This document shows positions 1,422 to 23,405 of a stretch of DNA of 63,877 bases, piece by piece (the stretch's first letter is position 1; the number at the start of each line of letters is the position of its first letter). The DNA lies in the NCBI GenBank assembly GCA_900553785.1, contig USES01000004.1, positions 1 through 63,877 of the forward strand. The letters run 5' to 3'. This stretch comes from an uncultured Clostridium sp. (GTDB lineage: Bacteria; Bacillota; Clostridia; TANB77; CAG-465). The notes under the pieces are model-generated. The model saw nothing but the letters and a program-made list of their open reading frames with translations. It made no database searches and had not been told where the DNA came from. The position numbers and the translations under genes were made by a program.

Positions 1422-3233
1422 ATGAAAAATATTAGAAATGTCGCTATAATAGCCCATGTTGACCATGGTAAAACTACTTTGGTAGACTGCCTATTAAAAC
1501 AAAGTGGAATATTTAGAGCAAACGAACAAGTTTCAGAAAGAGTCATGGATTCTGGAGATATTGAAAAAGAAAGAGGAATAACAATACTTTCTAAAAATAC
1601 ATCTGTAATGTATGGGGATATTAAGATAAATATAGTAGATACTCCAGGACATGCAGATTTTGGTGGAGAAGTTGAGCGTGTACTTAAAATGGTAGACGGT
1701 GTACTTTTGGTTGTAGATGCTTTTGAGGGTGCAATGCCTCAAACAAGATTCGTATTATCTAAAGCTTTAGCTTTAAACTTAGTGCCAATAGTTGTAATAA
1801 ACAAAATAGATAGACCAGGCGCAAGACCTGCACAAGTGTTAGACGAAGTATTAGAGTTGTTTATGGATTTAAATGCAAATGATGACCAATTAAACTTCCC
1901 AGTAATATATGCTTCTGGTAAGGGCGGATTTGCAAGATATAACGCAGAAGATACAAATGAAGATATGAAACCATTATTTGAAACAATAGTAAAATATGTA
2001 CCAGAGCCAACAGGAGATGAAGCAGAGCCTCTTCAAGTGCTAATTTCAAATATTGATTCTGATGAATATACAGGAAGAATTGGTATAGGTCGTGTTGAAA
2101 ATGGTGTAATACACAATGGACAAAACGTTGCAGTGTGTAAAAAAGATGGTTCAGTTCAAAACATTAAAATTGGTAAACTATATACATATGTAGGTCTTAA
2201 ACGTGTTGAAACAGATACAGCAAAATGTGGAGATATTATTGCTATAACAGGACTTACTGGAATTAACATTGGTGAAACAATAGCTGATCCAGAACATCCA
2301 GTTGCAATACCTTTCGTAGACATAGACGAGCCTACTGTTTGTATGACATTTAGCGTAAATAATGGACCTATGGCAGGGCAGGAAGGCAAGCTTATAACTT
2401 CTCGTCATATAAGAGATAGATTATTTAAAGAAGTAGAAACAAACGTATCTTTAAGAGTAGAAGAGACGGATTCTGCAGATTCTTTTAAGGTATATGGACG
2501 TGGAGAACTTCACTTATCAATATTAATTGAGCAAATGAGACGTGAAGGATTTGAACTACTTGTATCTAAACCTCAAGCTGTTGTTAAAGTAATAAATGGT
2601 GTAAAATGTGAACCTATTGAAGCAGTTACAATAGATGTACCAGATGAATTTGTTGGAGCTGTTATGGAAAAAATGGGTAACAGAAAAGGTGAGATAACTA
2701 ATATGGCTCCATCACTAACTCAAGTAGGATATACTAGACTTGAATTTAAAGTTCCAGCTCGTGGCCTTATTGGATATAGAAATGAATTTATGACAGATAC
2801 AAAAGGAACTGGTGTTATAAACAGTATATTTGCCGGTTTTGAACCAGATAAAGGAACAGTTGTTACAAGAACACATGGAACAATTATAGCTTTTGAAAGA
2901 GGAAAATCTACTACTTATGGTTTGTTTAATGCTCAAGAAAGAGCAACATTATTTATTGGACCAGGAACAGAAGTATATGTTGGTATGATAGTTGGTGAGA
3001 ACTCAAGAAGCGAAGACATGATAGTTAATGTATGTAAAGAAAAACACTTAACTAATACAAGAGCTAGTGGAAGTGATGATGCATTAAAACTTGTACCACA
3101 CAAGATATTGTCACTAGAGCAAGCATTGGAATTTATTGCTGATGATGAACTTGTTGAAGTAACACCACTTAACATTCGTTTAAGAAAGAAAATACTTGAT
3201 CCTACAAAGAGATTAAGAGGAATAGCAGATTAA
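1422..3233 (+). CDS. typA: Translational GTPase TypA/BipA
   Basis: AHVDHGKTT G1 motif, DTPGH and NKID motifs, EF-G-like domain order, ~600 aa. Confidence 0.95.
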   Translation: MKNIRNVAIIAHVDHGKTTLVDCLLKQSGIFRANEQVSERVMDSGDIEKERGITILSKNTSVMYGDIKINIVDTPGHADFGGEVERVLKMVDGVLLVVDAFEGAMPQTRFVLSKALALNLVPIVVINKIDRPGARPAQVLDEVLELFMDLNANDDQLNFPVIYASGKGGFARYNAEDTNEDMKPLFETIVKYVPEPTGDEAEPLQVLISNIDSDEYTGRIGIGRVENGVIHNGQNVAVCKKDGSVQNIKIGKLYTYVGLKRVETDTAKCGDIIAITGLTGINIGETIADPEHPVAIPFVDIDEPTVCMTFSVNNGPMAGQEGKLITSRHIRDRLFKEVETNVSLRVEETDSADSFKVYGRGELHLSILIEQMRREGFELLVSKPQAVVKVINGVKCEPIEAVTIDVPDEFVGAVMEKMGNRKGEITNMAPSLTQVGYTRLEFKVPARGLIGYRNEFMTDTKGTGVINSIFAGFEPDKGTVVTRTHGTIIAFERGKSTTYGLFNAQERATLFIGPGTEVYVGMIVGENSRSEDMIVNVCKEKHLTNTRASGSDDALKLVPHKILSLEQALEFIADDELVEVTPLNIRLRKKILDPTKRLRGIAD

Positions 3234-18100: not shown

Positions 18101-19276
18101 CTAAATATTATTTGAAGCAAAGCTTCTTAAAACTTTAACCCATTCAATATAAGCTGATTCTGTTAAGTGATATTTTCCATCACTTGCGTATTTTCCCATT
18201 AAGTATCCATCACTATCCATCAAGTATGATGCCACGTCTATTACTGTAACACCCCAACTTGAAGCTAATTCTCTTAATTTACTATTAAATAGTCTAATAT
18301 TTGAATTATTTAAATATGTTAATTGGTAAGATTTTGTCATTGGTGTTGTAGTAAGTATGTATATTTTCACATTTGGACTTTTTTCACGAATTGCATCTAT
18401 TAAAGTTTTGTAATTTGTAATAGAGTCTGTTACACCATAAAGTCCTAAGTCATTCATTCCAAACATCATAAATACTTTATCTACTTTTAAAGCGGCAGTT
18501 AGATCCCACAATTGTGTTTGGTAACCTTTGTATGTTGGATGTATAGAATTAGAACTTACAGCTTTTAATGCATTGCCTAATCCATAGCTTCCCATTCCAT
18601 ATACAATCATTCCACCTAAAAAGCCTTTTTCTTGTTTAGCAACATAGTTTTGAAATCCAAGAGTTACAGAGTCACCATAAAAAACAGAGTTGTTAAAAAA
18701 CTTATCAGCGGCAGCCTCTGTTACTCCAGATTTTAAAGTGTTTCCTGTGTAGTGTTTTGTATCTACAGGTGTATTTGAAACAGATACTCCAGTACTTTCT
18801 GCAATATGACGGCCTTCTCCTGTTGTTCCCTCACGAGGAGTTTTAGTTGTTAAATACTCGCTAGATGCGTAAGCAAAGTCACCATTGTCTAGTTTTATTT
18901 TATCCCATCCATTATCTCCTATACCAACTCTTGTAAATTTAGTATCAGGAGCGGCTTGGAATAAAATGTCGCCATCTAAGCTTGGTTTCTTGCGTATATT
19001 TAAATATATTGATGTGTATACAACATCATTGGCTGTTTCAAACTTCACGCCATATTCACTACTTATATTATCATCTTTTGGCTCTTCTGTATTGTTTTGG
19101 TTATTATCTTTATTATCGGTAGGCGTGTTTATTTCATTTGGTTCTTTGTATGGCTCAACGTTATTTGAGTTTTTTCCAATAATTAAAATAACGAGCACTA
19201 CAATTATTGCAACAATTACAGCTACAGCAATATAAAATAGTTTGTTATTATTTTTAGTTTCTTCATATTTTCGCAT
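18101..19276 (-). CDS. Membrane-anchored SH3b plus SGNH/GDSL hydrolase-acyltransferase domain protein
   Basis: TM helix, low-complexity linker, SH3b-like segment (NIRKKPS..GWDKIKL), GDS (FYGDSVTLG) and GMNDLG blocks. Confidence 0.75.
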   Translation of the reverse strand: MRKYEETKNNNKLFYIAVAVIVAIIVVLVILIIGKNSNNVEPYKEPNEINTPTDNKDNNQNNTEEPKDDNISSEYGVKFETANDVVYTSIYLNIRKKPSLDGDILFQAAPDTKFTRVGIGDNGWDKIKLDNGDFAYASSEYLTTKTPREGTTGEGRHIAESTGVSVSNTPVDTKHYTGNTLKSGVTEAAADKFFNNSVFYGDSVTLGFQNYVAKQEKGFLGGMIVYGMGSYGLGNALKAVSSNSIHPTYKGYQTQLWDLTAALKVDKVFMMFGMNDLGLYGVTDSITNYKTLIDAIREKSPNVKIYILTTTPMTKSYQLTYLNNSNIRLFNSKLRELASSWGVTVIDVASYLMDSDGYLMGKYASDGKYHLTESAYIEWVKVLRSFASNNI

Positions 19277-19348
19277 AGAAATTTCCCCCCTAAAATTTGG
19301 TTAAATTATATAACAATAGTGTGCATAATGCAAGGAGATTAAACAAAC

Positions 19349-19403
19349 TTAAATAATATCTTAAATGACACTTGAAAAGTGAAAAAACTTAGTGTAGAAT
19401 TTT
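19349..19403 (+). repeat. 55-nt promoter module, copy A (upstream of lemA)
   Basis: 51 of 55 nt identical to 23246-23300. Contains TTGAAA (19372-19377), 17 nt, TAGAAT (19395-19400). Confidence 0.85.
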
Positions 19404-19492
19404 GAAAAATAGGTAAGAAAAGTGTCGAAATATTTGGAAAATAATCCAAATGTAAAACAGGCCAAACAAAATTGTTGAAATGGAGGTAAAAA

Positions 19493-20044
19493 ATGAATTG
19501 TGTAATTGTTATAGCGGCAATATTGGTGGTATGCCTAGTGTATCTTGTAGTTGTGTATAATAAACTAATAAAACTTAACAACTCAGTAAGTGAAAGTTTT
19601 GCAACTATGGATGTTTATTTGAAAAAAAGGTGGGATTTAATACCCAATTTAGTTGAGATTGTAAAAGGTTATGTAAAGCATGAAAAGGAAACATTTGAGG
19701 AAATTACAAAATTAAGAAGCGAAAATTATGAGTCTTTATCTACTGATGATAAAATCAAAACAAATGAACAACTAAACAGGAACGTTATTAGGATTATGGC
19801 TTTAGCAGAAGCTTATCCAGAATTAAAATCAAATGAGAGTTTTTTGCAGTTAAGTGGTAATCTTACTTTGGTAGAGGATGAAATTGCTCAATCAAGAAAA
19901 TACTATAATGCTGTTGTAAGAGATTATAACAACAAAGTTGAAATGATACCAAGTAATATTGTAGCTAAAGTATTAGGTTATAAATCAAAATTAATGTTTG
20001 CCGCAAATGTTGAAGAAAGAGAAAATATAAAGGTGAAATTGTAA
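19493..20044 (+). CDS. lemA: LemA family protein
   Basis: N-terminal TM and the YNKLIKL...YPELKSNE...YYN pattern of LemA. Confidence 0.85.
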   Translation: MNCVIVIAAILVVCLVYLVVVYNKLIKLNNSVSESFATMDVYLKKRWDLIPNLVEIVKGYVKHEKETFEEITKLRSENYESLSTDDKIKTNEQLNRNVIRIMALAEAYPELKSNESFLQLSGNLTLVEDEIAQSRKYYNAVVRDYNNKVEMIPSNIVAKVLGYKSKLMFAANVEERENIKVKL

Positions 20045-22161
20045 TGGCAGGAAGAAGTAAAGGACAAGGGTGTTTAAATTTTCTTTTAAGATTTTCTTTT
20101 TTCGGATATGTTGCTGCTATGATTTTGGGGGCGTTAATTACTGGGGTAACTGCTCTATTTAGTGATGATACAAAGAATTTAAAGCTTGCAGATGGTTTTA
20201 CTATATCGTCATATAATGTAATACTAGATGTTAAAGTAGATAATAAAATTGATGTTACAGAAAATATAACAGTTAATTGGGAATCTAGTAATCATCATGG
20301 AATTTATAAATTTATTCCAGAATGGTTACAATATACTGATAAAAATGGTAATACGATTAGAAGAAAGTCAGTTATTTCCAATTTAAGGTCAACAAGCGAT
20401 CCTTATTCGACAGATTGGGTTAAGAAAAAAGCTAGAATAAAAATTGGTAGTGCTTCTGAATATGTAAATTTAGGAGAAAGGACATATATCATAGAATACA
20501 CTTATGATATGGGTAAGGACCCGTTTAGAAATTTTGATGAATTTATTTTTCATGCGTTTGGCGATTATTGGGGTACCCAAATTAATAACGCTACTGTACA
20601 GATAAATATGCCTAAAAGTATAAGTGGTTATAATGTTAACTTCTTTACTGATAAGAAAAGAAAAGAAAATGTTTCCGACTATGTTGATTATGAAATTGTA
20701 GGTAATACGTTGTATGCTAAGTTTAACCAAGATAAATATGCGCAAACTCAAAGAAAAAATGGTTACAATGATAAAAAACTTGAAAAATCTTTAACAGTTG
20801 ATATAGAACTTCCAGAAGGATATTTTGTAGGTGGAAGTTGGAATTATGGTTGGGGCTCATTTACAATTGCATTAGTAATTTTGGGAATTACAGCTTATAC
20901 AATATTTAAGTGGAAAAAGTATGGAAAAGATTATTTAAAACCTGCCCAAACAGTAGAGTTTTATCCACCAGAAAATATGAGTGCTGCAGAGGTTGGATAT
21001 ATTTATGGAAAACAAACAAGCAAAAAATTAACCATTTCTTTGATAGTACAACTTGCCAGCAAGGGATATATAAAGATAGATGAAGTGAAAGATAAGAAAA
21101 AAGAGATACAAATAACCAACTTAGCACCAACAAAGCCAAGAGAAGTAGAATCCTTTGATACAACACCTGGAAAAAGAAAAATAGAGATTAAAAAACTTAA
21201 GGATATAGATGATCATTTAGCCAAGAACGAAGTTACAATGATGAAGTATTTGTTTAAAGAAGAGAATACAAAGTTATTAGAAACTAATTTTGTAAAATTT
21301 GATGCTGTAAAAGATAACTTAGTCTCAGGAGGATATATAGAAATATTAAACGACAATGAATCAACTAGATTATCCGATGTAGACACTAGAAAACAAGAAT
21401 ATGTTGAAAAATTAAAACAATATGAAAAAGATTTATTAGAATATAACAAAGAAATCGTTAAAATGCCTCCATTAACAGAACTTGAATCAATTGTGTATAA
21501 CAGATTATTTAAATACGAATCTACCTTTATATTGAGTGAACACAAGACATTTTATAGGGCTTTTAGTGATGTTGAAGAAAGATTGAAATCAAAACTAAAT
21601 GATGTTATTCATGATAAAATTGCCACAAAAAAGATGAAATCATCGATATTTGTTACTATCCTAGTTGCCATTTTAAGTGTTATATCTTATGTGTTTGTAA
21701 AAGACTTGGATCCAAGTTGGAAAATATTATATACTGCATCTTTCTTATGTATTATAGTAAATATGTTCTTTACTATATTTATGAAAAGGAAAACAGAATA
21801 TGGAGAAAAAATTACTGCTCAAATACAAGGATTTAGAAACTTTTTAATAACTGCAGAAAAACCAAGATTAGAAGCATTAGTAGCTGAGAATCCAAATTAT
21901 TTTTATAATATTTTGCCTTATACGTATGCTCTTAATGTTTCAAAAAAATGGATAAAGAAATTTGAGAATATTCCAACACCAGATATGGATATGGGTAATT
22001 TCGATTATAGTAGCGATTGGGCATATCACAATTTATACAATAATGTTTACTATCCAGAACCGGTTTATTCTTCAAGTGGCTCGAGCTGTTCATCTTGTGG
22101 CGGCGGTTGCTCGTCTTGTGGAGGAGGCTGTTCATCTTGTGGCGGCGGTGGATCATGGTAA
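20044..22161 (+). CDS. DUF2207-family membrane protein with a C-terminal (CSSCGGG)x3-GSW tail
   Basis: Start overlaps the lemA stop. Large N-terminal ectodomain and central/C-terminal TM helices. The LemA partner is typical of DUF2207. Confidence 0.8.
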   Translation: MAGRSKGQGCLNFLLRFSFFGYVAAMILGALITGVTALFSDDTKNLKLADGFTISSYNVILDVKVDNKIDVTENITVNWESSNHHGIYKFIPEWLQYTDKNGNTIRRKSVISNLRSTSDPYSTDWVKKKARIKIGSASEYVNLGERTYIIEYTYDMGKDPFRNFDEFIFHAFGDYWGTQINNATVQINMPKSISGYNVNFFTDKKRKENVSDYVDYEIVGNTLYAKFNQDKYAQTQRKNGYNDKKLEKSLTVDIELPEGYFVGGSWNYGWGSFTIALVILGITAYTIFKWKKYGKDYLKPAQTVEFYPPENMSAAEVGYIYGKQTSKKLTISLIVQLASKGYIKIDEVKDKKKEIQITNLAPTKPREVESFDTTPGKRKIEIKKLKDIDDHLAKNEVTMMKYLFKEENTKLLETNFVKFDAVKDNLVSGGYIEILNDNESTRLSDVDTRKQEYVEKLKQYEKDLLEYNKEIVKMPPLTELESIVYNRLFKYESTFILSEHKTFYRAFSDVEERLKSKLNDVIHDKIATKKMKSSIFVTILVAILSVISYVFVKDLDPSWKILYTASFLCIIVNMFFTIFMKRKTEYGEKITAQIQGFRNFLITAEKPRLEALVAENPNYFYNILPYTYALNVSKKWIKKFENIPTPDMDMGNFDYSSDWAYHNLYNNVYYPEPVYSSSGSSCSSCGGGCSSCGGGCSSCGGGGSW
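22087..22149 (+). repeat. Three tandem 21-nt units each encoding CSSCGGG
   Basis: Units 1 and 3 are identical in nucleotide sequence. Unit 2 differs at 6 positions, all synonymous. Confidence 0.9.
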
Positions 22162-23147
22162 AAAGATTTGTATTACAGTGGCACCTGAGTGAAAATTGTA
22201 ATTTAAAATGTTTACACTGCTATCAAGAAAATCATAAGCCAGTTCAGTTAAGTTATGAGAATCTAGTGGTTATATATAATCAATTTAAAGAATTACTAAC
22301 TAAATTAAACATGAAGGGACATATAAATATTACTGGCGGAGAACCATTATGCAATCCATATTTATTTAATATTCTAGATTTAATAAAAAAAGATGAGAAA
22401 ATGATTAGTTTCTCAATATTAACAAATGGAACATTGATAAATGAAGATATTGCAAGAAAGATAAAGTCGTATAATCCATACTACGTTCAAGTAAGTCTTG
22501 AAGGTGGTAAAAAAATGAATGATTATATTAGAGGTGCAGGCACTTATGAAAAAATAGGTAGAGGAATAGATAATTTAAAAAAGTATGATATATTTACTTC
22601 TATTTCTTTTACTGCTACTTCTATCAATTATAAGGAATTCCCGAAGGTAGTAAAATATGCTGTTAAACATAAAGTAGATAATGTTTGGTCAGATCGTTAT
22701 ATACCATTAGGAGGTAATGAAGATAAAAGTTTAGCTTTAAATTTAGAACAGACTCAAGAATACTTAAATATAATGAGTAAGGAAAGAGAAAAATTAAGAA
22801 ATAAAAAATACAATAAAACATCTATTTCAATGTATAGAGCATTACAATTTCAAAAGACAAATGATTTTGCATATGGTTGTACTGCTGGTGATACCCTTTT
22901 AACTGTGATGGAAAACGGGGATTTAGTTCCTTGCAGAAGAATGCCAATTGTGGTAGGAAATTTATTAACTGAAAATATGTATGATTTATATGTTAATAAT
23001 TCTGTGCTTAAAGAACTTAGAAAACAAAAAATACCAGATGATTGTGCTGAGTGTGAACATTCAGAAATGTGTCATGGTGGTTTAAAGTGTCTTACCTATG
23101 CGTTATATAAGGATTTGAACCATAAGGATGTAGGATGTAAATTGTAG
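22155..23147 (+). CDS. Radical SAM enzyme with a C-terminal SPASM-type Cys cluster
   Basis: CNLKCLHC (CxxxCxxC) near the N-terminus. C-terminal CTAG...PCRR...CAECEHSEMCHGGLKC. ATG 22155 overlaps the DUF2207 stop (ATGGTAA). The upstream extension in the track is the Gly/Cys repeat read in another frame. Confidence 0.85.
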   Translation: MVKRFVLQWHLSENCNLKCLHCYQENHKPVQLSYENLVVIYNQFKELLTKLNMKGHINITGGEPLCNPYLFNILDLIKKDEKMISFSILTNGTLINEDIARKIKSYNPYYVQVSLEGGKKMNDYIRGAGTYEKIGRGIDNLKKYDIFTSISFTATSINYKEFPKVVKYAVKHKVDNVWSDRYIPLGGNEDKSLALNLEQTQEYLNIMSKEREKLRNKKYNKTSISMYRALQFQKTNDFAYGCTAGDTLLTVMENGDLVPCRRMPIVVGNLLTENMYDLYVNNSVLKELRKQKIPDDCAECEHSEMCHGGLKCLTYALYKDLNHKDVGCKL

Positions 23148-23245
23148 AAAAGATTAAAAAAGATAAGATAAATGTAGATACAAATGTGTTTATATTTATC
23201 TTTTTTTATATTAAATTTTTAAGTTAGCTAACATAAAAAGCGAAT

Positions 23246-23300
23246 TTAAATAATATCTTAAAATATACTTGAAAAGTAAAAAAACTTAGTGTAGAATTTT
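23246..23300 (+). repeat. 55-nt promoter module, copy B (upstream of pilin-like paralog 2)
   Basis: 51/55 identity to copy A. TTGAAA 23269-23274 and TAGAAT 23292-23297. Confidence 0.85.
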
Positions 23301-23405
23301 AGAAAATAAAGGAGAGATATGTCGGGTTGTTATAATTATAAGGAATAATATAACAAATATTTACGCATACTTTATTTAAAACAAATGATTAGGAGGAAAA
23401 TTAAA

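Follow-up and report, generated by a model that had tools for sequence, protein, structure and literature searches.

We analysed a 63,877-nucleotide stretch of DNA from an uncultured Clostridium sp. (contig USES01000004.1 of assembly GCA_900553785.1; hereafter the window), in which lemA is followed by the gene for a DUF2207 membrane protein and then by the gene for a radical SAM/SPASM enzyme. The products of all three genes exceed the curated Pfam cut-offs for their domains (LemA; DUF2207 and DUF2207_C; Radical_SAM and SPASM). The first two, a LemA gene followed by a gene encoding both the N- and C-terminal DUF2207 domains (PF04011, PF09972, PF20990), satisfy the definition of the LemA-DUF2207 module. 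The initial annotation of this DNA had described the three genes as chained by overlapping stop and start codons, and both overlaps were found where it had placed them. As seen in the list of open reading frames (ORFs) and in the raw sequence, base 20044 is common to the TAA stop of lemA and the ATG of the DUF2207 gene; the enzyme gene in turn begins within the last codons of the DUF2207 gene (Table 1). The 330-residue enzyme ORF starts with MVKRFVLQWHLSENCNLKCLHCYQ. A promoter-like site lies 5' of lemA, and no + strand site as good is found within the three genes. Directly 3' of the enzyme stop codon, an AT-rich hairpin (-18.6 kcal/mol, z -5.8, none of 200 shuffles as good) resembles a terminator; it was missed by a consensus terminator scan because the scan requires at least three G-C pairs. 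With a promoter-like site at one end and this hairpin at the other, the three genes look like one transcription unit.

Table 1. Features of the lemA-DUF2207-radical SAM/SPASM locus. Positions are those of the window.
Feature	Position	Strand	Evidence or remark
Promoter-like site, TTGAAA-17 nt-TAGAAT	19372..19400	+	10/12 consensus matches; 5' of lemA, inside a repeat of about 80 nt
lemA, 183 residues, N-terminal transmembrane helix	19493..20044	+	Pfam PF04011, 168 bits
DUF2207 membrane protein gene, 705 residues	20044..22161	+	Pfam PF09972, 67.6 bits; PF20990 (DUF2207_C), 116.2 bits
Coding region of the tail (CSSCGGG)x3-GSW, residues 682-705	22087..22158	+	Proposed enzyme target
ATGGTAA overlap, enzyme ATG within Ser-Trp-stop (TCA TGG TAA) of the DUF2207 gene	22155..22161	+	
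Radical SAM/SPASM enzyme gene, 330 residues	22155..23147	+	Pfam Radical_SAM and SPASM; no N-terminal RRE domain
CNLKCLHC (CX3CX2C), motif for the SAM-binding [4Fe-4S] cluster, residues 15-22	22197..22220	+	Invariant in alignment A1
SPASM region, seven Cys, two auxiliary clusters	22878..23138	+	Pfam match; Cys invariant in alignment A1
AT-rich 17-bp hairpin followed by a U run, probable terminator	23165..23208	+	Folding

The DUF2207 protein ends with YSSSGSS, three consecutive CSSCGGG units and a final GSW. A six-Cys tail of this kind, encoded just 5' of the enzyme start, had been singled out in the initial annotation, and the sequence bears this out. The six cysteines (682, 685, 689, 692, 696 and 699) form three CxxC pairs; the 705-residue protein has only two others, both outside the tail. 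Hydropathy predicts four transmembrane segments (residues about 13-40, 270-288, 533-554 and 560-580), and the distribution of Lys and Arg fits, by a positive-inside count, a protein whose successive parts are N-in, out, in, out and C-in. On these grounds, and on that of a fusion protein described below, the C-terminal 125 residues, tail included, are predicted to be cytoplasmic.

The enzyme scores 81.3 bits against Radical_SAM (PF04055, cut-off 29.5) and 30.5 bits against SPASM (PF13186, cut-off 21.5). Its CX3CX2C motif is made up of C15, C19 and C22, and its SPASM region shows the full seven-Cys pattern (C242-x12-G-x4-C260, C297-x2-C300-x5-C306-x5-C312, C328), with x5 instead of the usual x3 as the last spacing. 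The CX3CX2C motif and all seven SPASM cysteines are invariant in an alignment of 30 members of the enzyme family (alignment A1). An AlphaFold2 model of the enzyme (predicted local distance difference test, pLDDT, 93.3) has a partial TIM barrel and a SPASM fold. Foldseek matched this model to SuiB, CteB, SkfB and anSME, with template-modelling scores (TMq) of 0.77-0.81 for SuiB, CteB and anSME. The best mutual structural coverage was obtained with anSME (TMq 0.80, TMt 0.73), which is also the closest solved structure by sequence in a comparison with the PDB. The RRE domain is absent: the radical SAM motif begins at residue 15 of the enzyme, whereas in CteB, SkfB and SuiB the matching part sets in only at about residues 99, 114 and 134 of the chain. 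Presumably the enzyme reads its target motif directly, as anSME does.

A scan of a genome collection (one genome per species, a single protein as query) reached close relatives only and yielded 30 loci with enzymes 67-90% identical to that of the window. The hosts are mostly uncultured gut Bacilli (e.g. Candidatus Faecisoma and Coprosoma), and one, Pseudobutyrivibrio sp. YE44 (L029), is cultured. In 30 out of 30 loci, an ORF ending in (C[SG][SG]CGGG)n-GSW overlaps the start codon of the enzyme gene, the overlap nearly always being 6 nt. When these loci were pooled with metagenome loci into a set of close relatives (63-91% enzyme identity), a tail gene of the same type was found to overlap the enzyme start in 49 of the 51 loci with enough 5' flank. 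No flanking genes are shared among the 30 loci beyond the tail gene and the enzyme gene, and LemA was detected in just 15 of them. LemA is thus outside the conserved core, and the conserved unit consists of the tail-bearing gene and the enzyme gene.

Of 52 related loci, 46 share exactly the same last 18 residues of the tail, GCSSCGGGCSSCGGGGSW. These residues are specified by 43 distinct DNA versions, with synonymous variation at every codon except that for Trp, whereas identity over the body of the DUF2207 protein is only 39-74%. The tail peptide itself is thus under strong purifying selection. In the related loci, TCA, TCT and TCG are used for the Ser before the final Trp, but never TCC; the overlapping start codon of the enzyme gene is accordingly always ATG, TTG or GTG.

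Gly/Ser/Cys tails ending in GSW had been thought to occur on many DUF2207 and TPM proteins that have no radical SAM neighbour. This caveat could be refined. At locus L039 (7628-10980) there are two DUF2207 paralogues with tails such as GGGGFSSGGGGGGSFGGGGSMGGR, representative of a Cys-free DUF2207 family of gut Bacilli whose Gly/Ser/Phe tails end in GGR or GSR. No radical SAM gene lies within 7 kb of such paralogues at the four places looked up, and to this extent Gly/Ser-tailed DUF2207 proteins without the enzyme do exist. Their tails, in contrast, contain no Cys: none is present in the last 30 residues of any of the 120 best homologues (61-96% identity) of one L039 paralogue. Cys-free paralogues at L114 (5784-8677), L115 (1005-3898) and L116/L117 (5766-8677) are encoded in operons comprising LemA, a YgjP-like (SprT-like) metallopeptidase and DUF2207; the LemA-DUF2207 module is thus seen without the enzyme in L114-L117. 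In these gut lineages, the enzyme accompanies tails that contain cysteines and is absent where the tails lack them. As a side observation, the tail-bearing protein may pair with different enzymes in different modules.

Distant loci were obtained from a metagenome scan with alignment A1, which returned 80 loci; more than 50 of these have enzymes only 34-44% identical to that of the window, on contigs of 29-73% GC. Enzyme identity falls sharply outside the window's clade, from 59% to 47% and below, and the family is large: a profile-free exhaustive search gave 406 cluster representatives at E <= 1e-30. Twenty-one distant loci (34-47% identity, 29-73% GC), two of them from look-ups, have full flanks, and in 18 of these a gene for a protein with a Cys/Gly/Ser tail lies within 1.5 kb of the enzyme gene. 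The linkage of the two genes in other genomes, proposed as a check by the initial annotation, is therefore found in both close and distant relatives.

The proteins carrying the tail at the distant loci are DUF2207, TIGR04222 and TPM-domain proteins and proteins of no family. The TIGR04222 carriers (about 300-360 residues, 84-125 bits, cut-off 43) have (CGG/CGGG)n tails and also match DUF2207_C, one of them above the Pfam cut-off. The distant DUF2207 carriers are about 545-575 residues long, end in (CSS)nCGGGGAD and are usually encoded immediately downstream of the enzyme. More generally, the carrier gene is found upstream, downstream or on the opposite strand. At one locus (L099) the sole tail candidate is a 96-residue stop-to-stop frame with a Cys/Gly tail. 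The Cys-rich tail is the only constant across the distant carriers. Neighbour joining divides the enzymes into subclades that correspond to the tail motif (...GSW, (CSS)nCGGGGAD or (CGG)n) and to the gene order.

Two further loci show departures from the simple gene pair. At L068 (2918-4978), two tandem paralogous genes, both with Cys-rich tails, precede a single enzyme gene; they resemble TIGR04222-type partners and were not scanned against the family libraries. With two tail genes per enzyme gene, one enzyme may serve several tails. At L032 (2415-5053), a Y1_Tnp (IS200-like) transposase gene (2766-3152) seems to interrupt the DUF2207 gene beside the enzyme gene: a 58-residue N-terminal part precedes it, and a 576-residue remainder, with the tail CGGGGGGCGGGGGCGGGGAG, follows. 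This contig may be archaeal, as it encodes a protein matching the Pfam family Ribosomal_S27.

The specificity of the association was assessed on 1175 ORFs of at least 100 residues in 112 fetched loci and the window. Tails rich in Gly, Ser and Cys were found in 88 ORFs. Eighty-six of these hold at least two Cys, and all 86 lie no more than 1142 nt from the enzyme gene, mostly abutting or overlapping it; the two Cys-free ones are the only ones found farther away. The arrangement is far beyond chance. A six-frame search of all loci for Cys-rich tails found only the neighbouring proteins, and a search of a large protein database with the tail alone (44 residues) gave 12 short contig-end fragments from 499 candidates. 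One conceivable notion is that the adjacency is meaningless, an accident inherited within one gut lineage, and the tail no different from ordinary low-complexity sequence. Although Gly/Ser-rich tails are general in DUF2207 proteins, as this notion would have it, the recurrence of the adjacency across the distant identity and GC ranges, with different carriers and gene orders, already contradicts it, as do the specificity count and the selection acting on the tail. Together with the Cys-free paralogues, which lack the enzyme, these findings leave it with almost no credibility.

A direct link between tail and enzyme comes from P0215 (L113, 3001-5556), a single uninterrupted ORF of 851 residues comprising a multi-pass membrane protein, the Cys-rich segment GGGICFGCTGCSACGGCGSCGGCSSCG and a radical SAM/SPASM enzyme that belongs to the family studied here. 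The ORF lies on a 15.9-kb contig of 35% GC, beside a gene with ATP-synt_ab domains; its N-terminal part received no DUF2207 assignment from BLASTP or Pfam. Since no transmembrane segment separates them, the Cys-rich segment and the enzyme share one compartment. As read from its sequence, the fusion ties the Cys-rich segment to the enzyme.

Adjacency, co-variation and fusion would suit any tight physical partnership, and the tail could accordingly be a partner of the enzyme rather than its substrate: an arm of CxxC pairs, three in the window's protein, that binds metal or Fe-S clusters and docks or anchors the enzyme, or feeds it clusters or electrons, while the enzyme acts on some other membrane target (a lipid, a cell-envelope precursor or a protein). 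Such a role might be accommodated with the only functional DUF2207 study that was found, in which loss of the protein in S. mutans led to stress phenotypes (sensitivity to acid and oxidative stress, with biofilm defects) by no known mechanism (PMC10457818). However, many distant tails are of the (CGG)n or (CSS)n type and lack the regular CxxC spacing, and the enzyme already has seven SPASM cysteines for auxiliary clusters of its own. Moreover, all of the named enzymes that stand closest to it, or that match it best in fold, are modifiers of peptides or proteins, and there is no second conserved neighbour that might be the true substrate. We consider the partner role, although it is the main rival to modification of the tail, unlikely.

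The tail is very probably the target of the enzyme, since relatives of the enzyme in very different microbes also adjoin proteins with Cys-rich tails. Judging from this genomic association, the enzyme probably modifies the tail cysteines of the neighbouring DUF2207 membrane protein. Thus, within the reach of sequence analysis, comparative genomics supports the hypothesis, put forward in the initial annotation, that the radical SAM enzyme modifies the C-terminal tail of a full-length membrane protein. We postulate a protein maturase that needs no leader, lacks an RRE domain and holds three [4Fe-4S] clusters; it would act on the cysteines of the (CSSCGGG)x3 tail made from the gene just upstream. 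Translation of the DUF2207 and enzyme genes would be coupled through their overlapping stop and start codons, and the tail, following the fourth transmembrane helix, would project into the cytoplasm, within reach of an oxygen-sensitive cytoplasmic enzyme. The enzyme is a member of a large, unnamed family found in many anaerobic habitats, which pairs with Cys/Gly/Ser-rich C-terminal tails whatever the carrier.

Several points weigh against modification of the tail. Unmodified CxxC repeats might themselves be ligands for Zn or Fe-S clusters. TIGR04222 tails are predicted to be periplasmic in a recent survey (PMC12452194), a location awkward for a cytoplasmic radical SAM enzyme. Finally, intact enzyme genes without an adjacent tail gene are present in L044 (75% identity), L031 (59%) and L084, and a 40%-identical enzyme is encoded in a bacteriocin-like cluster in L088 (1770-10060). 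On account of these four loci, adjacency is the rule without being obligatory, and outer members of the family probably have other substrates. The L088 enzyme gene lies between a gene for a Cys-rich protein with radical SAM-like features and one for an ABC transporter with an N-terminal Cys-peptidase motif, and the cluster looks like a classical one for a bacteriocin or a ribosomally synthesized and post-translationally modified peptide (RiPP).

The same four loci, and the short frame at L099, are what one would expect if the enzyme matured a small peptide that has escaped recognition, or a substrate encoded elsewhere, in the manner of classical RiPP systems, its adjacency to DUF2207 reflecting no more than a shared operon or pathway. 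The search for such a precursor in the window spoke otherwise. There is no + strand ORF of at least 20 residues in the 238-nt gap 3' of the enzyme gene. A 26-residue ORF with four Cys, MEVKNELCNCYSGNIGGMPSVSCSCV, overlaps the lemA start in another frame (19480-19560); it was rejected as a precursor because it has no counterpart in 10 related loci, and it probably arose by chance. The earlier remark that no small precursor ORF is visible on either side therefore stands. Furthermore, the flanks outside the gene pair are not conserved, and the six-frame search described above recovered neighbouring proteins only. A small-peptide substrate, or one encoded elsewhere, appears quite improbable.

DUF2207, TIGR04222 and TPM proteins with Gly-rich tails, together with LemA-DUF2207 operons, rank with the most frequent membrane proteins of bacteria whose function is unknown. 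An enzyme dedicated to the tail would mean that the tail is a functional element, and would make the function of these very common proteins directly testable. It would also mean that whole membrane proteins are a regular class of substrate for the radical SAM/SPASM "peptide" maturases. Gut bacteria whose genomes measure about 1.2-1.5 Mb retain the module, which suggests that it is not dispensable there.

The surroundings of the operon in the window include a near-identical stretch of about 80 nt that occurs twice, 5' of lemA (19348-19428) and just 3' of the operon terminator (23245-23325). Both copies hold the TTGAAA-17-TAGAAT sequence, and the exact 33-mer core of the repeat (23268-23300 in the second copy) occurs there and nowhere else in the window, against an expectation of 0 by chance. 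The second copy precedes the next gene, whose 405-residue product starts with a hydrophobic segment and matches no Pfam family. Upstream of the operon, a divergent gene on the - strand (18101-19276) encodes a protein of 391 residues in which an N-terminal membrane anchor is combined with SH3_3 and GDSL lipase/acylhydrolase domains; this gene is not conserved beside the module in other genomes.

The window enzyme and nine distant relatives were scanned against the June 2026 release of NCBIfam, and none of the ten reaches any curated cut-off. In nine of them the top match is to one of two models, that of the ACGX-system enzyme (cut-off 400), at 135-158 bits, or that of SbtM (cut-off 350), at 131-165 bits; in the enzyme of L082, haem-pathway models score slightly above these two. 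For the window enzyme the top match is the ACGX-system model TIGR04340, with 157.8 bits over the full length (4-325 of 330 residues); against this model the distant relatives reach 135-156 bits. Its match to SbtM (TIGR04082; 135.6 bits) covers only profile positions 199-497 of 516, so that the N-terminal part of the SbtM profile is missing in the enzyme. Membership in the ACGX, SbtM, GeoRSP, PapB, anSME and haem/NirJ families was rejected on score. The assignment to a clade, which had been suggested as a further check, thus ends short of any curated family, the nearest ones being radical SAM enzymes that act on Cys-rich peptides (SbtM and the ACGX system). As its best matches are of this kind, the enzyme has no known unrelated substrate.

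The comparison with characterized systems shows likenesses and differences in each case. The maturases of SCIFF/ranthipeptides and sactipeptides (CteB, PapB, SkfB and SuiB) are radical SAM enzymes with SPASM or twitch domains that act on adjacent Cys-rich substrates, and they are found among the top fold matches. Unlike the window enzyme, which starts at the radical SAM core, they have an N-terminal RRE domain and use leader peptides; against the PapB model the window enzyme scores 111 bits (cut-off 340). anSME is, like the window enzyme, a leaderless radical SAM/SPASM protein of similar size, and it modifies Cys or Ser in a whole protein. However, the window enzyme scores only 65.1 bits against the anSME model (TIGR03942, cut-off 349), and the tail lacks the sulfatase motif C/S-x-P-x-R. 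The partner of the ACGX-system enzyme is a peptide with short repeats centred on Cys-Gly, which resemble the SCGG of the tail. Here, in contrast, no small repeat-peptide gene is adjacent, and the repeats form the end of a 705-residue protein. No paper on the ACGX system was found in the literature searched.

Thiooxazoles derived from Cys are the products of MNIO enzymes in bufferins, and SbtM arrives at thiooxazoles by radical chemistry. SbtM abstracts hydrogen from the C-beta of Cys or selenocysteine and joins the residue to the carbonyl of the Gly before it as a thio(seleno)oxazole; the site is a conserved GGUG motif, and a mass change of -4 Da and UV absorbance near 304 nm are the signature of the reaction (PMC9204691). 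The enzyme is thought to hold three Fe-S clusters, and its substrate is a small selenopeptide reported to be limited to Geobacter and 'Desulfbacteria' (PMC9204691). SbtM is the best or second-best NCBIfam match of the enzymes considered here, and its GGUG motif resembles the GGCG, SCGG and GGGC contexts of the tails. It differs in that a selenopeptide, and not the tail of a membrane protein, is modified, and the window enzyme scores far below the SbtM cut-off. By analogy with SbtM, the enzyme might abstract hydrogen at the Cys C-beta and form thiooxazoles, giving a metal-binding tail; this is our first guess at the chemistry, tentative and less likely than not. Thioether cross-links or formylglycine are what we would expect next.

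The closest parallel as regards the target is the pairing of MNIO (DUF692) enzymes with TIGR04222 proteins. In 2025, a survey of MNIO found TIGR04222 proteins to make up about 40% of the Cys-containing proteins that lack a signal peptide and are encoded before MNIO genes, and proposed that MNIO acts on their C-terminal tails, which are rich in Ser and Gly and dotted with Cys; a third of the genomes with TIGR04222 genes lack MNIO (Microb Genom 2025, PMC12452194). The proposed target there, as here, is the unstructured tail of a full-length membrane protein, and the gene for the modifying enzyme may precede or follow that for the carrier; TIGR04222 is also among the carriers found here. The two systems differ in that MNIO is an oxygen-dependent non-haem iron enzyme, as opposed to a radical SAM/SPASM one, and in that the survey places the tails in the periplasm. 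The likeness is therefore one of target, a Cys-rich Ser/Gly tail on a TIGR04222/DUF2207_C-type membrane protein, and not of enzyme. No MNIO gene adjoins the tail protein of the window, whose neighbour is the radical SAM/SPASM gene; the other flanks hold the GDSL lipase-like gene and the unassigned gene described above. The survey mentions neither 'SPASM' nor 'DUF2207', and its two uses of 'radical SAM' are, in the passages available, not about TIGR04222. Nor did the searchable papers yield any connection between radical SAM enzymes and DUF2207, TIGR04222 or TPM tails, and no curated family model or paper describing the pairing was found in the libraries and literature searched.

On this comparison, the pairing described here looks like a radical SAM counterpart of MNIO-TIGR04222. 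It is possible, though we hold it below an even chance, that the enzyme family is a widespread counterpart of MNIO in anaerobes, which covalently alters tail cysteines of full-length DUF2207, TIGR04222 and TPM membrane proteins, the products being, for instance, thiooxazoles or cross-links with a metal-binding or redox role. If true, this would offer a first biochemical handle on these families, and a class of RiPP-like modification directed at whole membrane proteins as opposed to released peptides. Two unrelated enzyme families, MNIO and radical SAM, would then be linked to the same kind of target, in parallel with the formation of thiooxazoles by both MNIO and SbtM. Radical SAM/SPASM maturation of adjacent Cys-rich sequences and the MNIO-TIGR04222 association are known; what appears to be new, in the literature and libraries searched, is the pairing of a radical SAM enzyme with these tails.

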